Positions 1,802 through 32,000 of a DNA stretch of 32,000 nucleotides are shown in pieces. This stretch comes from Candidatus Babelota bacterium. Its GTDB lineage: Bacteria; Babelota; Babeliae; Babelales; Vermiphilaceae. The first letter of the stretch is position 1, and each line of letters begins with the position of its first letter. The notes beneath the pieces are model-generated. The model did not search any database. It worked only from the letters and a program-made list of their open reading frames with translations, and was not told the DNA's origin. The stretch spans positions 840,001 through 872,000 of the forward strand of contig JBDHVY010000001.1 in assembly GCA_039809905.1 (NCBI GenBank). Direction: 5' to 3'. A program made the position numbers and the translations under genes.

Positions 1802-2398
1802 TTACTTACAAGTCATACGGTATGTTAAACCGGTAAAGAGAGTTAAATCAGATTTAGCAGCCCATGTTTTTTTCTTTGTCTCAATCATAGAAATAACGGC
1901 ATCAATTTTCTTGATCAAGCTTGATTCACCAGCTTGTTTAGCTTTACATTTTAAGGTATTCAATTTTGTAAGTATTTGGCTAAATACGCGTTCGGTATTA
2001 AAATCTCGCTTAATTTCGTTGGCAAATGAACCGGCATCAGTTGAGCCATTATACTTTTTGATAATATTATGAGCAATAGTAAACTGACGTAAAGCATAAT
2101 CCATAAGATCATTGAGTTCTTTTGCTAATTCACTATTATTATTTCGAGTAACAATTTCTTCAACTTTTCTTTTAAAATCACTAAAGAGTTGCTCTAATGA
2201 GATCACGTATGTCCCAAAAGATGTTTTATTGTTCTGACTAAAAAAGTCACTAATCTTTCTATCTACTTCAAAAACGAATGTGCCAAAATCCTTGATGGTT
2301 GTTTCATGTTCGGAATGAGCATATGCTCCCGTTACGGTGATCAATGTTGCAAGTAATGCTACTCTACTCAAAATATTTTTTTTCATTTCATTTTTCAT
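1802..2398 (-). CDS. Hypothetical secreted protein (198 aa)
   Basis: Long ORF whose N-terminus MKNEMKKNILSRVALLATLITVTGAYA is signal-peptide-like. The remainder is helical and K/E-rich. No recognisable catalytic motif. Confidence 0.65.
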   Translation of the reverse strand: MKNEMKKNILSRVALLATLITVTGAYAHSEHETTIKDFGTFVFEVDRKISDFFSQNNKTSFGTYVISLEQLFSDFKRKVEEIVTRNNNSELAKELNDLMDYALRQFTIAHNIIKKYNGSTDAGSFANEIKRDFNTERVFSQILTKLNTLKCKAKQAGESSLIKKIDAVISMIETKKKTWAAKSDLTLFTGLTYRMTCK

Positions 2399-2577
2399 AA
2401 AGAATCCTTCTCATTTAGCATGGTTATCTGTTGTAACCTACTTTTATTGATCTTACTACTATTCTACCCTGGTATCCTTGCCTCGTCAAAGGCACCCCAA
2501 AAAGATTGAATTAATCGCTATTTTCATTATTATGAGCGTAATAATATAGTCTTTAATACTCAAGTCCATGTCTTCAC

Positions 2578-2614
2578 CGGGGTCCCCGTGTGAAGCGCAG
2601 CAAAACAGGGGGTT
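2578..2614 (+). promoter_or_regulatory. GC-rich palindromic box CGGGGTCCCCGTGTGAA plus GGGGGTT box 30 nt downstream, 5' of mraY
   Basis: The 17-mer at 2578-2594 is identical to 17414-17430. The core GGGGTCCCC (2579-2587) is a perfect palindrome embedded in CTTCAC-CGGGGTCCCCG-TGTGAAG. The second G-box at 2608-2614 lies 8 nt before the mraY ATG. Function is unknown (operator, promoter or 5'UTR element). Confidence 0.5.
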
Positions 2615-9931: not shown

Positions 9932-9969
9932 CAATAAAAAAGAAAAGCCCCTACAAAAAGGGGCTTTTT
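9932..9969 (-). terminator. Rho-independent terminator of the Na+/solute symporter gene
   Basis: Stem AAAAGCCCCT (9943-9952) / AGGGGCTTTT (9959-9968). On the minus strand it is followed by TTTTCTTTTTTATT. Confidence 0.7.
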
Positions 9970-9992
9970 GATCTGAAGGTATGCAAGCGTTG

Positions 9993-15887: not shown

Positions 15888-16436
15888 ATGAAAAAAATAA
15901 TAACAATAGGCTTGTTTTCAATGACTTGTGTTTTATGTAGTATGGATGCACCCAACAAAATGATTTCAGAACCATCTCGTCCTTATTTCCGTCCAATTAA
16001 TCCTGAGGTTGAAAAGCGGTGTAATGTTGCTCAATGGCAGAGTGAACTGGCTTATGCTGTAGCTCTTAATAAAAAGAATGCATTGCCTGGTTTATTAGTG
16101 CAAGCGGGTAAAGATGCTACTGAACTTATTTGTAGTGCTAATTCAGCATATGGTCCAATACTGAAAATTACTTATGTTGAAAATACTCCAGAAATCAGAA
16201 AATTATTAATGAAATATATGGATGAAGAGTATTGTAAAAAATGTTTTTATCGAGAACTAGTAGAGCTGCATGCTGCTTGGGAGTTTAATAATTCACAAAA
16301 AAATTTAAAAAGAACGTGCCCTGCTGCTGAAAGTCTTGTGCGCGATTTTCATCAGCAAGATTCTTTTAAGTATTATTTGACAAATCAAGAATGTGAAAAG
16401 TTAGGTATAGCCAAAAATACTATGTTAAGCCAATAA
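15888..16436 (+). CDS. Hypothetical secreted protein (182 aa, Cys-rich)
   Basis: AAGG lies upstream of the ATG. Signal-like N-terminus MKKIITIGLFSMTCVLCS. Starts 21 nt after the previous gene, so probably forms an operon with it. Confidence 0.6.
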   Translation: MKKIITIGLFSMTCVLCSMDAPNKMISEPSRPYFRPINPEVEKRCNVAQWQSELAYAVALNKKNALPGLLVQAGKDATELICSANSAYGPILKITYVENTPEIRKLLMKYMDEEYCKKCFYRELVELHAAWEFNNSQKNLKRTCPAAESLVRDFHQQDSFKYYLTNQECEKLGIAKNTMLSQ

Positions 16437-16453: not shown

Positions 16454-16481
16454 CCCCAATCAGAATGTAATGGGATTGGGG
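16454..16481 (+). terminator. Weak candidate terminator after 15888..16436
   Basis: 8-bp stem CCCCAATC / GATTGGGG with a 12-nt loop, followed by CTCATTT. The T-run is poor. Confidence 0.3.
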
Positions 16482-17376: not shown

Positions 17377-17470
17377 GGGGTCCCCATTTATCCCCAATTT
17401 CACTTCGTTCTATCGGGGTCCCCGTGTGAAATGAAGTGAGCAAGGGGTTAAAATAGAGAATGGGGTATAA
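17377..17470 (+). promoter_or_regulatory. Two GGGGTCCCC palindromes plus two GGGGT boxes, 5' of pheT
   Basis: TGGGGTCCCCA at 17376-17386. CGGGGTCCCCGTGTGAA at 17414-17430 is identical to 2578-2594. GGGGTTAAAAT starts at 17444 and GGGGTATAAA at 17462. The pheT ATG is at 17482. Confidence 0.5.
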
Positions 17471-17481
17471 AGAGACTTCTG

Positions 17482-25886: not shown

Positions 25887-27131
25887 TTAGCTCTGTTCTT
25901 CTTGTTGATCAAGATGATCTTGCCAAAGAATAAGAGCTTTTTCTATCAGGTTTTCACGCTTATCATTCAGTTCTGGTTTTGTGGTAAAGTAATTGCCCAA
26001 AACTTCAGAAAGATCCATATTCACTTTTAGTGCGCAACCACGTTTTTCACGTACAGGTAAACTGTGTATTGGAATAACGCCGATAAGATCAAGTGCATCT
26101 TGGCATGCAAGTTCTATTGTTTTTAATTCAACCAAGTCTTTTTTGCCAGCAGGTACGTGATACATAATTTTAACGATAGCATCACGAAGATCATATTTTT
26201 TTATTTCATCGATAATTTGATTGGTTTGAGGTATTCCCGAAACAAGCTGTACCTCAATTTGAATAAAAGGACGAGTGGGTACAGGAATAAATTCGTACGA
26301 TGCTTTTCCTTTTTCAGGAATGCTGACCAAACAAAATCCTTTTTCCTCTTTACGTTCGCCAAAATCAATTCGTTCAATTGATCCTGAATAAACAACTGCT
26401 GGATATCCACCAGCATTAAGATTTTGGTGCCGATGCAAATGACCTAATGCAACATAATCAAATGGTTTTAACGCTAATTGCGATGGCATAAGCATCGGAT
26501 CATTGCCATAAATAGCTCGTTTTTCTGAACCTGAAAATATTCCGGTGCTGACGGTAATATGGCTTGCAAGAACAGCAGGAATTGTTTGATCAATTTTTTG
26601 TGCGTAATCGCTGATAATATGAGCAACTGCCTTTGAAATATATTCTGTTAGCTGGGTATTTGATTTATCCAGATGTTTATCAGCAATAGCGATAGTATTG
26701 CGCGTTGGCCAAGGAACGCCAACGATAGTGATAGGACCATTTTTTGTGTTGAGTACAATAGAACCTGGTTTTGAAAAGACATGAAAACCTTCAAGTGGTA
26801 TTTCGCCGAGCATATCAAGTGCATGAGCTTTACCAAAGCTGAGTGGATGATCATGATTTCCTATGACAATAACAATAGGAATGCCTGCTTTATACAAACG
26901 TAAAAAACATTTAAACAACAACTTTTGCTGTGTTTGACTTGGATTATGTGTTTTATACGCATCACCTGAAAATAAAAAGAAATCGACTGATTCTTTTATT
27001 GCAACATCAATACAGCTATTGAGTGCTTTTTCAAAATCAAGAAGGCGTGTATGTATTCCTGTTTTGGCATCAATTCTTCCATAATTTTCCATGCCAAAGT
27101 GAATGTCTGCAGTATGAATAAATTTTATCAT
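25887..27131 (-). CDS. sbcD: Mre11/SbcD-family DNA repair exonuclease
   Basis: Calcineurin-like phosphoesterase motifs in order: HTADIHFG, SGDAYK, GNHDHP, LGHLH. 414 aa. Confidence 0.9.
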   Translation of the reverse strand: MIKFIHTADIHFGMENYGRIDAKTGIHTRLLDFEKALNSCIDVAIKESVDFFLFSGDAYKTHNPSQTQQKLLFKCFLRLYKAGIPIVIVIGNHDHPLSFGKAHALDMLGEIPLEGFHVFSKPGSIVLNTKNGPITIVGVPWPTRNTIAIADKHLDKSNTQLTEYISKAVAHIISDYAQKIDQTIPAVLASHITVSTGIFSGSEKRAIYGNDPMLMPSQLALKPFDYVALGHLHRHQNLNAGGYPAVVYSGSIERIDFGERKEEKGFCLVSIPEKGKASYEFIPVPTRPFIQIEVQLVSGIPQTNQIIDEIKKYDLRDAIVKIMYHVPAGKKDLVELKTIELACQDALDLIGVIPIHSLPVREKRGCALKVNMDLSEVLGNYFTTKPELNDKRENLIEKALILWQDHLDQQEEQS

Positions 27132-27250: not shown

Positions 27251-28723
27251 CTATTGCTCATCAGTGTGGTTATCTGGATGAATTAATCGTGCGCCAATGA
27301 ATGAAAACTCATCAGACTCAGTTTTTTCAGCAGCTTTGTGCGATATTGTTTTATTTTTTAATTTTGTTGCATAATCAGCTTTATTGATTTGATGAGATCG
27401 CGCAATTGCTAGTGCATTATCAGCAACATCGTAGGTGATTGTTGAGCCTGCTGCAGTGAATGCATTGTTACCAATGGTAATAGGTGCAACAAGAGTATTA
27501 TTACTTCCGATAAATGCATTATCTTCAATAATTGTTTTATGTTTGTTGGTGCCATCATAATTACACGTAATTGTTCCTGCTCCGATATTCACGTGAGATC
27601 CAATAGTTGCATCACCAATATACGCAAGATGTTTTGCTTTTGAATGAGCATCAACAGTGCTATTTTTTACTTCAACAAAATTACCAATTGCGCTGTTTTG
27701 ACCTATCGTTGTTTGTGATCGTAGATGGGCAAAAGGGCCAACTTGTGCGTGTGATTGTATAAAAGAGTTTTTGATAACGCAATGAGAGTGAACTATTACA
27801 TTATCTTCTACTATGACGTTATCTAATGATGAATGTTCATTGACAATGGAATTTCTTCCAATAATAGTGTTTCCTTTCAGATACACATATCCACCAATGA
27901 AAGAACCGGCGCCAATAACAACCTCTAAATCAATGTGTGTTTGTTGAGGAAACGAAAAACGCACACCATTATCCATCCAATAATTAATAAGTTTACGGCG
28001 TTGTATTTCTTCAACTTTATATAATTCTTGAAATGTATTGATGCCACGAATGGTATCAAAAGGTGCTTGTAAGGTGGCAACAGTAAGATTGTTTTCACTT
28101 GCTATTTTAACCAGATCAGTAATGTAAAATTCTTTACTTGCATTGTTATCATTTAATGTTGCAATGTAATTTTCTAGAAAATCTTTTTTAATCAGATAAA
28201 TACCAGCATTAATGCAACAATGTTTGCTGATGTCACCAGTAAAATCTTTTGCTTCAACGATGGCAATACGATTATCTTCTTTTACAATTCTACCGTATCC
28301 TTTTCCTGTTTCATCAGTGCAACATGATCTGACAAAGCTAATAGCAGCATTATTTTTTATATGTTCTTCATAAAGCATGGTAATGATGTCTGCAGTGATA
28401 AGGGGAACATCAGCATTAAGTACAAGAATATGATTTTTTTTCCATGATGCTTTGGTGCATGCAAGGGCATGTCCGGTGCCTTCTTGTTTTTCTTGTACAA
28501 CAAATTCGATAGTTTCAGTGTGTTGTTTTGCAATAAGATTTCTGACTATTTCCTGTTGATATCCTACAACGATGGTAGTTGCTATATTAAGTTGTGCAAG
28601 CAATTTAGTTGGATAAAGAATCATTGCTTGACCACAAATTGCTTCGGCAAGTTTTGTTGTATCGGTGTTAAAACGAGTTGATTTTCCCGCAGCTAAAATA
28701 ATTGCTTGAACATTATTATTCAT
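27251..28723 (-). CDS. glmU: Bifunctional GlcNAc-1-P uridyltransferase / GlcN-1-P acetyltransferase
   Basis: N-terminal AIILAAGKSTRF nucleotidyltransferase motif and a long left-handed beta-helix of hexapeptide repeats. The start at 28723 (MNNNVQAIILAAG) parallels the E. coli N-terminus. About 40 aa of C-terminal extension. Confidence 0.9.
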   Translation of the reverse strand: MNNNVQAIILAAGKSTRFNTDTTKLAEAICGQAMILYPTKLLAQLNIATTIVVGYQQEIVRNLIAKQHTETIEFVVQEKQEGTGHALACTKASWKKNHILVLNADVPLITADIITMLYEEHIKNNAAISFVRSCCTDETGKGYGRIVKEDNRIAIVEAKDFTGDISKHCCINAGIYLIKKDFLENYIATLNDNNASKEFYITDLVKIASENNLTVATLQAPFDTIRGINTFQELYKVEEIQRRKLINYWMDNGVRFSFPQQTHIDLEVVIGAGSFIGGYVYLKGNTIIGRNSIVNEHSSLDNVIVEDNVIVHSHCVIKNSFIQSHAQVGPFAHLRSQTTIGQNSAIGNFVEVKNSTVDAHSKAKHLAYIGDATIGSHVNIGAGTITCNYDGTNKHKTIIEDNAFIGSNNTLVAPITIGNNAFTAAGSTITYDVADNALAIARSHQINKADYATKLKNKTISHKAAEKTESDEFSFIGARLIHPDNHTDEQ

Positions 28724-28886
28724 ATCATTTTTCTCGATTAATAGCATTAATCACTAACGTATTTATTATGTAATTTTGGCATTAGTGTATCATGAAATTT
28801 CAAAATTTTCATACATCTTTACTATTCAAGAAATTATAGTACAGTTATTGCTTAATTTTGGGTTAACTTACAAAAAGGAAAGCACG

Positions 28887-29783
28887 ATGAAGCACATAAC
28901 ATTTTTATTATGTTGCATGATAATAATGAATATGAATGCAATGCTAATTCAATCTTTGCCTAAAGAACTAATGTTAATTCAATCTTTTCCTGAAGAAATA
29001 AATACTAGAGTTGTTCAAGATATTCCACTATCACCATGGCTTGAAACATTAGAGGAAGTTAATGATGTTATGAAATGCCTGGCTCGCCTAAATAATTCCT
29101 GGCGTTCATATATTAATGATTCAAAAAATACACTTTCTTTAATCAAAGAACTTTCAAAAAGATTTGGTGTATCTGATATTGAAGTGGCAGGGAAACTATC
29201 TATAAAAGATGCACAATCGCGTTATGCTATCCAAACTAGTGTCTTTGCTGTTTGGGAGAGATCAGATGAAACAATCATTCATAGGCATTTGGATAGACTA
29301 GCTTCGAAACTAGATTTAAATTTTACTTATTCAGGTGATTTTTGCGAAGAATCTACCTTGTTAATCTCCGCAGTTTATTCATCAAAAATTGCTATAGCAA
29401 AATGGTTAATACAAAAAGGCGTCGATATTAATAAATGTAATGAATGTAATGAAAGGAAGCTAAATCCTGTTATGGCAGCACTCATTCGTTGTCCAGAAAA
29501 CATGATCAGTTTGTTATTTAATCAGCCATCATTGGATTGTAATAGTGTTGATGGTTATGGTAATACCTTATTGCATTATTGTATTCATAGTCCTCATTGC
29601 TCATCTCAATGTGGTAATCAAAAATTTGAGATAATGGTTCCAATAATCAAAAAATTACTTGAAAAAGGCATTGATCGTAATGCAGTGGACAATGATGGAA
29701 AAACAGCTTTAGATATTGCCAACTCTTATACATTCAAATATGAACCATTTTTGAAAATTTTAAATTCTAAACAGAACTCATAA
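28887..29783 (+). CDS. Signal-sequence + F-box-like + ankyrin-repeat protein (tandem paralog 1)
   Basis: ATG at 28887 is preceded by AAGGAAA. N-terminus MKHITFLLCCMIIMNMNA. F-box-like FPEEINTRVVQDI…LARLNNSWRSYI. ANK-like GNTLLHYCIHS and DGKTALDIA. C-terminus YEPFLKILNS. Confidence 0.75.
   Translation: MKHITFLLCCMIIMNMNAMLIQSLPKELMLIQSFPEEINTRVVQDIPLSPWLETLEEVNDVMKCLARLNNSWRSYINDSKNTLSLIKELSKRFGVSDIEVAGKLSIKDAQSRYAIQTSVFAVWERSDETIIHRHLDRLASKLDLNFTYSGDFCEESTLLISAVYSSKIAIAKWLIQKGVDINKCNECNERKLNPVMAALIRCPENMISLLFNQPSLDCNSVDGYGNTLLHYCIHSPHCSSQCGNQKFEIMVPIIKKLLEKGIDRNAVDNDGKTALDIANSYTFKYEPFLKILNSKQNS
28941..29000 (+). repeat. 30-bp tandem duplication (2 units, 4 mismatches) inside CDS
   Basis: atgctaattcaatctttgcctaaagaacta / atgttaattcaatcttttcctgaagaaata, encoding MLIQSLPKEL / MLIQSFPEEI. 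This duplicates the LPxE(L/I) start of the F-box-like segment. Confidence 0.85.
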
Positions 29784-29806
29784 AAAGGTGATTCGCAAGG
29801 AATGGC

Positions 29807-30745
29807 ATGAAAAAAATAATAATCTTATTATGTTGCATGATAATAATGCATATCAATGCAATGATGAATCCAGAGATATCCGAAAAAAACAAAATAAAAC
29901 TTACAGAATTACCTCAAGAAATCAAGATTATGATTGTTAATGATGTTATTTTGTCTCCGTCGCTGCAAACACCAGAAGAAGTTAATGATGTTATGAAATC
30001 TTTGGCCCGCGTAAATGAATCATGGAAGAAATTTATTACCAATTCAGAAAATACACTTTCTTTAATCAAAGGCCTTTCGGGTAGATTCGGTCTATCTAAT
30101 ATGGAAATAACAAAAAAATTATCTATAAAAAAGGCACGATCACGTTATACAATACAAACAGCAGCGTTGTGTGGTTGGAATAAAGACAATGCTCCTTTTA
30201 TCTACGACAACTTAGATAGGTTGTTTAAAGATGGGCTTGATCTCAATTTTACTTATGATGATGATTGTACGCTGTTATTAAAACCTGCTTTTGCGAATGA
30301 ACGAGAGCATACAGGACATGCTCCTTGTGATCTCTTTTATGACGGGTATTTCAAGGTCAGTAAGTGGTTAATTGATCATGGAGCAGATATTAATGTAATC
30401 ACCAAAGATGGAAAAAGTGCATCAATATTGATTTTTTCCATTTTTAATAAACCGCTTATTGAATTGTTTTTAAATCATCCAAAATTTAAGATCCATTATC
30501 AAGATAATGAAGGGAACACGGTATTACATTGTTGTTTTCAGCAAAGACTTAGGTATGGCCACATTTATGGTGATAATTTTAGTTTAGAATTACATGACAA
30601 TATTTATTCTGTGGTAGAAAAATTAATAGGAATGGGAGCAGATCCTCGTCTGTGTAATAAGCGAGGAAAAACTTCTTTTGATCTTGCAAAAGAAACGGGC
30701 TATGAACCGTTTTTGAAAATTTTAGATTCTCACTATAATTCGTAA
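29807..30745 (+). CDS. Signal-sequence + F-box-like + ankyrin-repeat protein (tandem paralog 2)
   Basis: N-terminus MKKIIILLCCMIIMHINA. F-box-like LPQEIKIMIVNDV…LARVNESWKKFI (nt 29909-30037). ANK-like GNTVLHCC and RGKTSFDLA. C-terminus YEPFLKILDS. Collinear similarity to 28887..29783. Confidence 0.75.
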   Translation: MKKIIILLCCMIIMHINAMMNPEISEKNKIKLTELPQEIKIMIVNDVILSPSLQTPEEVNDVMKSLARVNESWKKFITNSENTLSLIKGLSGRFGLSNMEITKKLSIKKARSRYTIQTAALCGWNKDNAPFIYDNLDRLFKDGLDLNFTYDDDCTLLLKPAFANEREHTGHAPCDLFYDGYFKVSKWLIDHGADINVITKDGKSASILIFSIFNKPLIELFLNHPKFKIHYQDNEGNTVLHCCFQQRLRYGHIYGDNFSLELHDNIYSVVEKLIGMGADPRLCNKRGKTSFDLAKETGYEPFLKILDSHYNS

Positions 30746-30871
30746 AAATTGGATTCATGATTTTTAATTTTTCTGCATGTGTCCTGTACTTTCAAAAAAG
30801 CGAAAATACGCTATGATATACAGAACAAGAATTCTCAACAATGTTTGCCCCAACTTTCTGATTCTGCAATT

Positions 30872-30911
30872 GGGGTCCCCGCGCGGAGAGTAGCGTAGTG
30901 TGGGGTATAAT
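30872..30911 (+). promoter_or_regulatory. GGGGTCCCCGCGCGGA box plus GGGGTATAAT (-10-like) 30 nt downstream, 5' of putative OMP gene
   Basis: Core palindrome at 30872-30880. The flank has the same GYGYGRA pattern as the other copies. TGGGGTATAAT at 30901-30911. ATG at 30924. Confidence 0.5.
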
Positions 30912-30923
30912 TAGGGTAGTTCA

Positions 30924-32000
30924 ATGTCGAAAAAATGCTTTCTTATAATAATTCTTTTGTGTGTAACACAAATAAATCGTGCAGAAATATACGATAATAG
31001 ATTTATTCCTTTATTTGCGCCACAGCAATTTTTTGTTGAAGATTTACCATCTTCATATGAATGTAGTTTTCAAGCAATAACGGCGAGTCAAGCTTTTGCG
31101 CGTGATGAAAAAGTTGTTGGTATTCCAGAATTGTTTGGAATATTTGATTTAAATACGCTTGCCACTTCTTTGCTTGAAATTACCGGAGAAAGTCCATTGC
31201 GTTCTGATTTGCTTGGAAGGGAACTTCCTTTTGCCGTTAATGGACGTATTCAAGGAGAAGGTTTTTTTATGCGATATTACCAAAGCCTAGGTAAACATTT
31301 TGCATTTGGAGCTAATCTCTTATTCCTTAAAACAAATTCACGTCAGACTTTTGAATTGGATCGAGAAAAAGCAAGAAATTTAAGACCTGGTGATATTGCA
31401 GAAATTAATCAGGCCCGGCGTGTAGCATTCCAAGAAATTGGTATTGTTGAAAATGATGCACCACAACATGGCATTGGTGATATCGATATTTTCATTCGTG
31501 GTGGCAGTACATGGGATTATGTATTAAAATGTCGTAAAATTTGGGCTGGATTATCGCTTGGTGGATATATTCCAACCGGTGTCAAAACAGAGATTTGCAA
31601 TGCAGCATCAATACCTTATGGTGGCAATGGTTTTGGTGGAATATACGTGAAAGGTGATGCGCTTTTTGAGTTAAAAGAGGATATTAAAGTTGGATTTTTG
31701 TTACAAGTTAGTAAGCGATTTGCGCGTACAACCTGTGTTCGTATGCCAATGGTTGCAAGTGAACCATATATTTTTGGACCAATTATTGGTAATGCTCATA
31801 TTAATCCCGGTCCAACATTAGCATTTTCGCCCTATTTTATTTTAGAAAACTTACGAGCTGGTCTTGGTGCTGGAGTACATTATACGCTTACATCACATTG
31901 GAAAGATTCATGGTGTGATGCGCGTAAAAATCCTCAGTTTCCGGTAGATCTATCACAAGTGATGAGAACATCCAAGTGGGGATCAGATTATTTTACCGTT
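30924..32000 (+). CDS. Putative outer-membrane beta-barrel protein (partial, continues past window end)
   Basis: I hand-translated 359 codons and found no stop. Signal-like N-terminus MSKKCFLIIILLCVTQINRA. Gly/aromatic-rich segments with alternating hydrophobicity (GLSLGGYIPTG, GGIYVKGDALFELK, KVGFLLQVSK). The functional call is tentative. Confidence 0.55.
   Translation, partial: MSKKCFLIIILLCVTQINRAEIYDNRFIPLFAPQQFFVEDLPSSYECSFQAITASQAFARDEKVVGIPELFGIFDLNTLATSLLEITGESPLRSDLLGRELPFAVNGRIQGEGFFMRYYQSLGKHFAFGANLLFLKTNSRQTFELDREKARNLRPGDIAEINQARRVAFQEIGIVENDAPQHGIGDIDIFIRGGSTWDYVLKCRKIWAGLSLGGYIPTGVKTEICNAASIPYGGNGFGGIYVKGDALFELKEDIKVGFLLQVSKRFARTTCVRMPMVASEPYIFGPIIGNAHINPGPTLAFSPYFILENLRAGLGAGVHYTLTSHWKDSWCDARKNPQFPVDLSQVMRTSKWGSDYFTV

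Follow-up and report, generated by a model that had tools for sequence, protein, structure and literature searches.

A window of 32,000 nt from the genome of a Candidatus Babelota bacterium (contig JBDHVY010000001.1; the window, W, is this whole stretch) carries four copies of the 9-nt palindrome GGGGTCCCC, which is the joint of two adjacent hairpins, its first part being the 3' strand of one hairpin (H1) and its last part the 5' strand of the next (H2), with one T in between. The unit to which this core belongs is best explained, with a probability of about 0.8, as a lineage-restricted, structured interspersed repeat that shows insertion polymorphism, self-nesting and occasional in-frame residence within genes. 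The repeat is a multi-copy family confined to one subclade of the Babeliales (Dependentiae). The element is scattered in either orientation through all types of spacers and is no dedicated control site of mraY or pheT, two of the genes that follow it in the window. In what follows, L-numbers denote loci of relatives or metagenome contigs, and P-numbers denote homologous proteins.

The core GGGGTCCCC starts at positions 2579 (copy A), 17377 and 17415 (both in the composite copy B, in which the second core belongs to an inner unit, B2) and 30872 (copy C), with T as the central base on the + strand in all four cases. An expectation of 0.02 occurrences was obtained from dinucleotide-preserving shuffles of the window, none of which (0 of 100) reached four, in line with the claim of the preliminary description that the count exceeds chance. 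When two mismatches to the core were allowed, no extra family members were found in the window. The same description had placed the cores outside any coding sequence, 42-105 nt upstream of + strand start codons. Coordinates and gene calls agree with this, the four intergenic cores lying 42, 105, 67 and 52 nt upstream of the ATG codons at 2621, 17482, 17482 and 30924, respectively. The first of these codons opens the gene for MraY (Pfam Glycos_transf_4) and the second that for PheT (also by Pfam), and the ATG at 30924 begins a signal-peptide protein without Pfam match, a putative outer-membrane protein. The 17-mer CGGGGTCCCCGTGTGAA, described as identical at 2578-2594 and 17414-17430, was recovered at both sites. 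GGGGT was found at 2609, 17444 and 30902, that is, 29-30 nt past the core start, so the proposal of a second G-box at a fixed offset of ~30 nt stands for three window cores; it fails family-wide, where the distance from the core to the G-box after it changes with an H2 loop of ~5-32 nt. Both this constant spacing and the constant orientation toward the downstream gene are limited to the window, the family having no such orientation rule. That the window copies precede mraY, pheT and the outer-membrane-protein gene is a coincidence of small numbers, three independent sites being all gene-facing in about 1 case in 8.

In the proposed anatomy, H1 has the form CCCC-AAy...rUU-GGGG with a pyrimidine-rich loop, and H2 the form CCCC-AUC...GAU-GGGG with a purine-rich loop, the 3' strand of H2 being the downstream 'second G-box'. 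The complete unit spans ~60-70 nt and consists of two imperfect palindromes linked by a single T, with fuller forms of ~100 nt. The suggestion, made earlier as an alternative, that CCCC pairs with the downstream GGGG was borne out, as this pairing is the second hairpin and shows compensatory changes.

The pairing was analysed in a MAFFT alignment of 29 sequences (A1) and by anchored stem parsing of 35 distinct copies. The C4/G4 clamps were invariant, and the stems extended beyond them with covarying pairs, the variants being AAU/AUU and AAC/GUU in H1, and AUC/GAU, AUU/AAU, GU/AC, GUG/CAU, GGC/GCU and GCGC/GUGU in H2. In A1, 91.9% of the cells were paired, compared with 35-59% when the partner column was shifted by 1-3 columns; 11 cells were changed on both sides, and the observed value was matched by 0 of 500 shuffles. 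In the anchored parsing, pair 7 of H1 was U-A in 23 copies and C-G in 7, with 22 and 6 in another count of the family, and pairs 5-7 of H2 were formed in 26-30 of the 35 copies with several pair types. Therefore, both stems are supported by compensatory changes among ~30 related copies. A rival fold, one long palindrome or cruciform with the core at its centre, is the minimum free energy (MFE) structure of some copies, but its positions 2-5, next to the core, are paired in only 2-10 of 35, and it was rejected.

The joining T was invariant in 29 of the 29 aligned copies and sets the strand of the element. With a covariance model of the two-hairpin unit (R1), which was used to score the copies, the T strand outscored the opposite one by ~25-40 bits at almost every strong site. 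The 5' end of the element reads CCTTTTrTCCCC, and its 3' tails read GGGGTTAAA or GGGGTAAG. The GYGYGRA flank is the 5' strand plus loop of H2 in one sub-family, and GTGTGA is also present in L002 (at 18757) and L125. A scripted helix search revealed a third, outer helix enclosing both hairpins in ~45% of the copies versus 8% of shuffled controls; its linker length varies among copies, and its sequences are locus-specific (TTTCCGC/GCGGAAA, GCGCTCG/CGAGCGC, ACCCCGT/ACGGGGT and CGTTCGT/ACGAACG). A G-quadruplex was discarded by inspection, as the G4 runs lie 14-34 nt apart, beyond canonical quadruplex spacing.

The window has a G+C content of 34% and, by a survey of Pfam domains and open reading frames (ORFs), encodes housekeeping and secreted ankyrin-repeat proteins. 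Its top PheT relatives in a set of species-representative genomes are two metagenome-assembled genomes (MAGs), L002 (63%) and L003 (59%), followed at 37-43% by MAGs labelled Candidatus Dependentiae or Babeliales; homologues of MraY and of other proteins, where named, also belong to Babeliales or Dependentiae. Among 80 genome loci, the 9-mer was found three times in L002 and twice in L003 (in 22 kb), and elsewhere as single chance matches in two GC-rich loci, with 0 copies in six more distant Dependentiae loci. A metagenome scan with the pattern CCCCAAYTTY-N5-25-GGGGTCCCC returned at least 120 matching loci. At least ~30 low-GC metagenome contigs among them, each with different flanks, share the conserved unit CCCCAATTTCCACTTCGTTCCAATCGGGGTCCCCATCGAAAGAAACTGAAGATGGGG and carry CCTTTTrTCCCCAATTTCCACTTCGTTCCAATC-GGGGTCCCC-ATCGAAAGAAACTGAAGAT-GGGGTTAA as a strikingly conserved sequence. 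L144, one of these contigs, is demonstrably from a relative of the window organism, sharing synteny with it and proteins of up to 84% identity. A scan of viral contigs with a 15-mer gave one unrelated match only, of 47% GC.

Copy density was ~1 per 9 kb over ~150 kb of related loci. The orientation of the copies was tallied for 44 scored copies with neighbours taken from crude ORF calls, L160 being entered twice. This 5.7-kb contig (Ga0137420_1447051) is in its entirety a giant inverted repeat, with arms 85-100% complementary over their full length. A chimeric or fold-back artefact of assembly is its probable origin, and its two inverted element copies, ~3 kb apart, are one locus. The downstream ORF was on the same strand as the element in 22 cases and on the opposite strand in 19, and the upstream ORF in 16 and 14, respectively. 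Divergent spacers held 5 of the 28 copies with both neighbours known (~18%). In L002 and L003, copies were found between convergent genes, in antisense between tandem genes and, in one case, inverted upstream of pheT. Copies also occupy short spacers beside or between tRNA genes (L154:1865-2044 and L199:10114-10566), where they are likely to be co-transcribed with the tRNA precursors. A replication-strand bias of the type seen in IS200/IS605-like insertion was looked for by GC skew and not found (13 versus 10).

Orthologous spacers differ in the presence of the element. The window, L002 and L003 are mostly syntenic, yet their elements lie in different spacers, the only one in common being the MIP-pheT spacer, filled in the window and L003 only. 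In L002 the element is absent upstream of both pheT and the outer-membrane-protein gene, and a copy is found between the orthologues of 25887..27131 and 27251..28747, where the window and L003 are without one. Copies follow directly after pheT in L002 and L003, with none there in the window. In L144, an element lies within a spacer of ~640 nt that corresponds to a spacer of 36 nt in the window. Nested copies were detected in copy B of the window and, with the same arrangement and other flanks, in L113, L125 and L098.

About 3 of ~45 element copies lie within ORFs. Two of them, in L156 (958-1028; protein P0121) and L208 (12109-12179; P0129), are in frame and occupy one and the same codon position in a conserved secreted Babeliales protein of ~940 aa and of unknown function, the two proteins being 74% identical. 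In both, 69 nt replaces a 39-nt segment that is kept by 11 of the 11 other aligned homologues, and the peptide of the element is encoded by these two only among the 120 homologues listed, closer homologues lacking it. Both hairpins are intact in the two copies, and the stems differ by compensated changes (AUC/GAU versus AUU/AAU). Recurrent targeting or gene conversion is possible as the origin of the shared codon position in two species. The third case is an antisense in-frame copy in L168 (P0241), which appears as an insertion of 21-22 aa in the acidic linker of a tetratricopeptide-repeat (TPR) protein, the 88%-identical P0242 being without it. Comparisons of filled and empty sites (L168 with L210; L156 and L208 with L209) were too diverged or involved a replacement, and neither the ends of the element nor a target duplication could be defined.

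From this distribution only, we infer that the repeat is mobile, and we take it to be a selfish, non-autonomous element similar to the repetitive extragenic palindromic (REP) doublets known as REPINs, to MITEs (transposable elements of the miniature inverted-repeat type) or to Rickettsia palindromic elements (RPEs). Several observations weigh against the reading as an interspersed repeat. The ORFs of the window and the gene tables of L204-L210, which cover a few percent of a genome, contain no transposase, no REP-associated tyrosine transposase (RAYT) and no PF01797 (Y1/RAYT) domain. Neither terminal inverted repeats (TIRs) with a target-duplication signature nor a clean empty site were found in the loci compared. 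Thermodynamic folding is ambiguous and its z-scores are modest; by MFE, copy C and the consensus form two hairpins, and copies A, B2 and that of L208 form one long hairpin, an outcome of the partial complementarity between the H1 loop, rich in pyrimidines, and the H2 loop, rich in purines. Every window copy faces a gene start, and the mraY hairpin persists in three lineages with a G-run at Shine-Dalgarno distance. In addition, the density and orientation statistics come from ~40 copies, crude ORF calls and the metagenome matches listed.

As to how such an element could spread, the locus-specific outer helices and the nesting within H2 loops might reflect a preference for insertion into the loops of existing palindromes. 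The replacement of 39 by 69 nt at the same codon position in two species might be the result of recombination, or of conversion, at ends with micro-homology. Either idea is speculative. Taken further, they would describe a hitherto undescribed coding palindrome of the Dependentiae, a hairpin doublet that spreads without a recognisable transposase, targets palindrome loops (its own H2 included) and micro-homologous sites, could have hit one codon position twice independently, and keeps its stems compensated even in coding sequence, as an independent second invention of the RPE type. This extended version is put forward tentatively and is somewhat doubtful.

A promoter-like TTGAAT-16-TATTAT at 2506-2533 (+), proposed in the preliminary description, was found by consensus scan and lies outside the repeat. 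It is conserved with at most one substitution in L202, L204, L205 and L206, and the leader 3' of it is not conserved. Conservation extends to ~60 nt around the site, GTCAAAGGCACCCCAAAAAG among them, in front of the mraY genes of five relatives (82-95% MraY identity). The site is probably the actual promoter of mraY or else part of a divergent promoter region that also serves the ORF 1802..2398(-). Because the promoter-like site lies just upstream of it, copy A is probably located in the mraY 5' untranslated region (5'UTR), as had been proposed. The element upstream of mraY is present in the window, in L205 (88% MraY identity) with compensated arms (CTTGCGT/ATGGCAAG versus CTTCAC/GTGAAG in the window) and in L202 (95%) with the core mutated to GGGATTACCCC, and it is absent from L204 (87%) and L206 (82%). 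The 3' G-run of copy A lies 8 nt before the ATG of mraY, and L205 has GGAG at that position. A local effect of copy A on mraY translation is possible from this arrangement.

Three functional explanations were weighed against that of a spreading repeat. The preliminary description had favoured a two-part operator or promoter site, recognised by a dimeric regulator or by an alternative sigma factor and controlling mraY, pheT and the outer-membrane-protein gene, a reading in keeping with the gene-facing position of all four window cores (42-105 nt upstream of + strand starts) and the constant spacing of their G-boxes. It had itself named random orientation and non-conservation at orthologous genes as what would speak against it, and both were found: the family follows no rule of orientation (22 versus 19), with copies in convergent, antisense-tandem, tRNA-spacer and ORF positions, and L002 is without the element upstream of pheT and of the outer-membrane-protein gene, as are L204 and L206 upstream of mraY. 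Furthermore, the core is destroyed in L202, the MraY of which is 95% identical, the G-box spacing varies widely with the two boxes covarying as a helix, and a conserved sigma70-like site already precedes the mraY copy. Promoter scans around the window copies gave only background-level matches, none above shuffle expectation. The operator or promoter was thus abandoned as very improbable, in favour of a dispersed repeat that lacks an orientation rule and is not kept at orthologous positions. Less improbable, but still unlikely, is a locally co-opted 5'UTR element, whatever the origin of the family, in which the hairpins would sequester a G-rich ribosome-binding region or stabilise the mRNA. Copy A does follow the promoter-like site that five relatives conserve, with a G-run (GGAG in L205) 8 nt before the ATG and a hairpin kept with compensated arms in the window, L202 and L205. 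However, L204 and L206 have mraY behind the same promoter region without the element, the fold that pairs the Shine-Dalgarno sequence is not the MFE, and a single family copy would be accounted for; Shine-Dalgarno sequestration at mraY is possible as a local side effect and is not the purpose of the family.

Rather unlikely as the full account, though the best placed of the three, is a host-serving motif that protects 3' ends, guides RNase processing of polycistronic or tRNA transcripts, or binds a nucleoid protein or gyrase. Such host roles have been proposed for the REP elements and bacterial interspersed mosaic elements (BIMEs) of E. coli. They would fit the maintenance of the stems by compensatory changes, even within coding sequence, the copies in tRNA spacers and those that follow genes (such as pheT, immediately, in L002 and L003), and the near-symmetric design, which would serve either orientation. 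On the other hand, orthologous spacers are usually without the element, divergent spacers hold ~18% of the copies for which both flanks are known, the hairpins are not followed by a U-tract, and the nested and in-frame copies are the products expected of a spreading element. This explanation is compatible with an interspersed repeat and does not exclude it. Chance or composition, as G/C-rich islands in an AT-rich genome, has nothing in its favour beyond the low copy number in the window and was dismissed as practically negligible, given an expectation of 0.02, near-identical 57-nt units recurring in many unrelated contexts and R1 E-values down to 1e-26.

Other candidates were also rejected. 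An integron attC site was considered by inspection: some 3' ends (GTTAAAC) fit GTTRRRY, others read GGTAAGC or GATAAAC, and neither a 5' inverse core nor an integrase was seen. An outward promoter within the element (GGGGTATAAT at 30902-30911 and GGGGTATAAA at 17462-17471) was not called on the + strand, and the family consensus past H2 reads TTAAAC or TAAGC. The view that the element is no intrinsic terminator was upheld, with no U-tract and no terminator-like site at any copy. A classical terminator is present elsewhere in the window, at 9945-9970 (AAGCCCCTACAAAAAGGGGCTTTTTG), as a hairpin preceded by an A-tract and followed by a T-tract, between the minus-strand TGT and SSF transporter genes; ordinary intrinsic terminators are therefore in use in this organism, with a C4/G4 clamp like that of the repeat.

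When compared with known systems, no Rfam 15 family matched the window at its gathering score. At E<=1, 13 element-bearing loci gave tRNAs and noise only, and 8 more loci gave tRNAs only. No relevant match to the 9-mer was found among the literature listed, and palindromic or intergenic repeats are not mentioned in the genome accounts of Chromulinavorax and Babela or in the TM6 comparative study. Small palindromic interspersed repeats are well known, but none has been described in the phylum Dependentiae in the literature searched.

REPINs consist of two inverted REPs that form a hairpin, and occur also as singlets and complex arrays, with variable spacers that keep their pairing (PMC3337134). 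The repeat described here resembles them in its two short imperfect palindromes per unit, with an H2 like a diverged inverted H1 and partly complementary loops, in the central base that marks orientation, in its singlets and nested or complex arrangements, in the variable sequence between parts that keeps its pairing, and in a probable number of tens to hundreds of mostly extragenic copies. It differs in its spacer, a single T instead of tens of nt, in the lack of a RAYT gene in the window or the L204-L210 tables (a few percent of the genome), and in its host, a reduced intracellular Dependentiae genome instead of a pseudomonad or enterobacterium, with some copies in ORFs. Two large REP super-families are described in one account as carrying a GTAG or CGTC tag (PMC3733652), whereas no conserved GTAG or CGTC is present in two alignments of this repeat, A1 and A5.

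RPEs are palindromic repeats of an intracellular bacterium, found in spacers and in frame in unrelated ORFs (PMC10969869). An obligate intracellular host and in-frame copies that add a short peptide without breaking the ORF (L156, L208 and L168) are shared features. In contrast, the unit is shorter here (~60-70 nt versus ~100-150 nt), the proportion of copies in ORFs is lower (~3 of ~45 versus nearly half in some RPE families), the sequence, not directly compared with RPE-1 to RPE-10, is regarded as unrelated, the host (Babeliales/Dependentiae) belongs to another phylum, and one case replaces 39 nt instead of being a simple insertion. MITEs such as Correia of Neisseria and QMITE of Coxiella are small, non-coding elements with stable stem-loop transcripts that insert into one another (PMC10969869). 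The present repeat is likewise small, multi-copy and rich in stem-loops, inserts into itself and is often located just upstream of genes, where expression may change. Unlike MITEs, it has only loosely inverted ends (TTTAWCCCCA), with no TIRs with target-site duplication shown, no parent insertion sequence (IS) or transposase among the window ORFs and L204-L210 gene tables, and few promoter-like matches in the window copies, no more than in shuffles.

For annotation, the G/C-rich boxes in Babeliales spacers are repeats to be masked and not regulatory motifs to be mined, and the repeat explains odd inserts of 20-25 aa in some predicted proteins. Its copies could also be used as strain-typing markers. 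Dependentiae genomes have been described as nearly without mobile DNA, with one IS4 transposase in Babela (PMC4378268). If the reading as an interspersed repeat is right, an insertion-polymorphic, self-nesting and ORF-entering repeat would be new evidence on the evolution of reduced genomes, and a second system, besides the RPEs of Rickettsia, for the question of how proteins tolerate palindromic DNA in their genes. The most intriguing lead is given by the copies within ORFs and by the nesting.

The hairpins and composite units of the window copies are collected in Table 1. With R1, copy B2 (17384-17453) was the best window copy, at 67.9 bits. In the nested unit that encloses it, the outer CCCCAUUU/AAUGGGG helix forms by MFE, with z = -2.9. 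Copy C (30840-30911) is diverged with compensated stems and scored 47 bits; its MFE is exactly two side-by-side hairpins, and its H2 stem (GCGC/GUGU) is a compensated variant of the AUC/GAU stem of the family. Copy A (2550-2618), with 22 bits and E = 2e-4, has lost H1, and its MFE is a single hairpin through the core. The hairpin at 16454-16481 scored 11.6 bits (E = 0.6) on the minus strand, a weak family membership, with a fold of -13 kcal/mol and z = -2.05; it may be a singlet remnant of the repeat or an unrelated terminator-like stem.

Table 1. Hairpins and composite units of the two-hairpin repeat, and a related solo hairpin, in the window.
Feature	Coordinates	Strand	Description
Copy A, degenerate	2572..2595	+	Imperfect palindrome CTTCAC-C-GGGGTCCCC-GT-GTGAAG; no nearby H1 partner CCCC
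H2-like pairing of copy A	2584..2612	+	CCCC(G)TGT...ACAGGGG(G), by inspection; differs from the MFE
Solo hairpin	16454..16481	.	CCCCAATC...GATTGGGG; same clamp and AAT start as H1; 3' of ORF 15888..16436
Composite nested unit	17377..17465	+	Core 17377-17385; CCCCAT (17382-17387) pairs with ATGGGG (17460-17465), enclosing B2
H1 of copy B2	17392..17418	+	CCCCAAT...ATCGGGG; its 3' GGGG supplies the left half of the 9-mer
Joining T, unpaired	17419	+	Between H1 and H2 of B2
H2 of copy B2	17420..17447	+	CCCCGTG...CAAGGGG; holds the GTGTGAA flank; 3' strand is the 'second G-box'
H1 of copy C	30848..30875	+	CCCCAA...TTGGGG
H2 of copy C	30877..30905	+	CCCCGCGC...GTGTGGGG, 8-bp stem with G-U pairs; GCGCGGA is 5' strand plus loop; GGGGT at 30902 is 3' strand

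Adjoining copy C, two tandem ankyrin-repeat genes were found at 28776-30745, between the GlmU-like and outer-membrane-protein genes. At least the second of them starts with a signal-peptide-like N-terminus, and neither is at the syntenic position in L002, which marks them as a lineage-specific effector insertion.

A second, unrelated repeat family, absent from the window, was detected in relatives, with units like (G/C)CGCTCG-CCCTGA...TCGAAGGG, the core CTCAGGRCGARCG and hairpins of its own. It was present in L095, L098, L107, L115, L116, L120, L133, L144, L160, L169, L174, L188, L189, L209 and L008, with examples at L125:431-470 and L107:1395-1440, and it often abuts or encloses the two-hairpin element, giving BIME-like mosaics.

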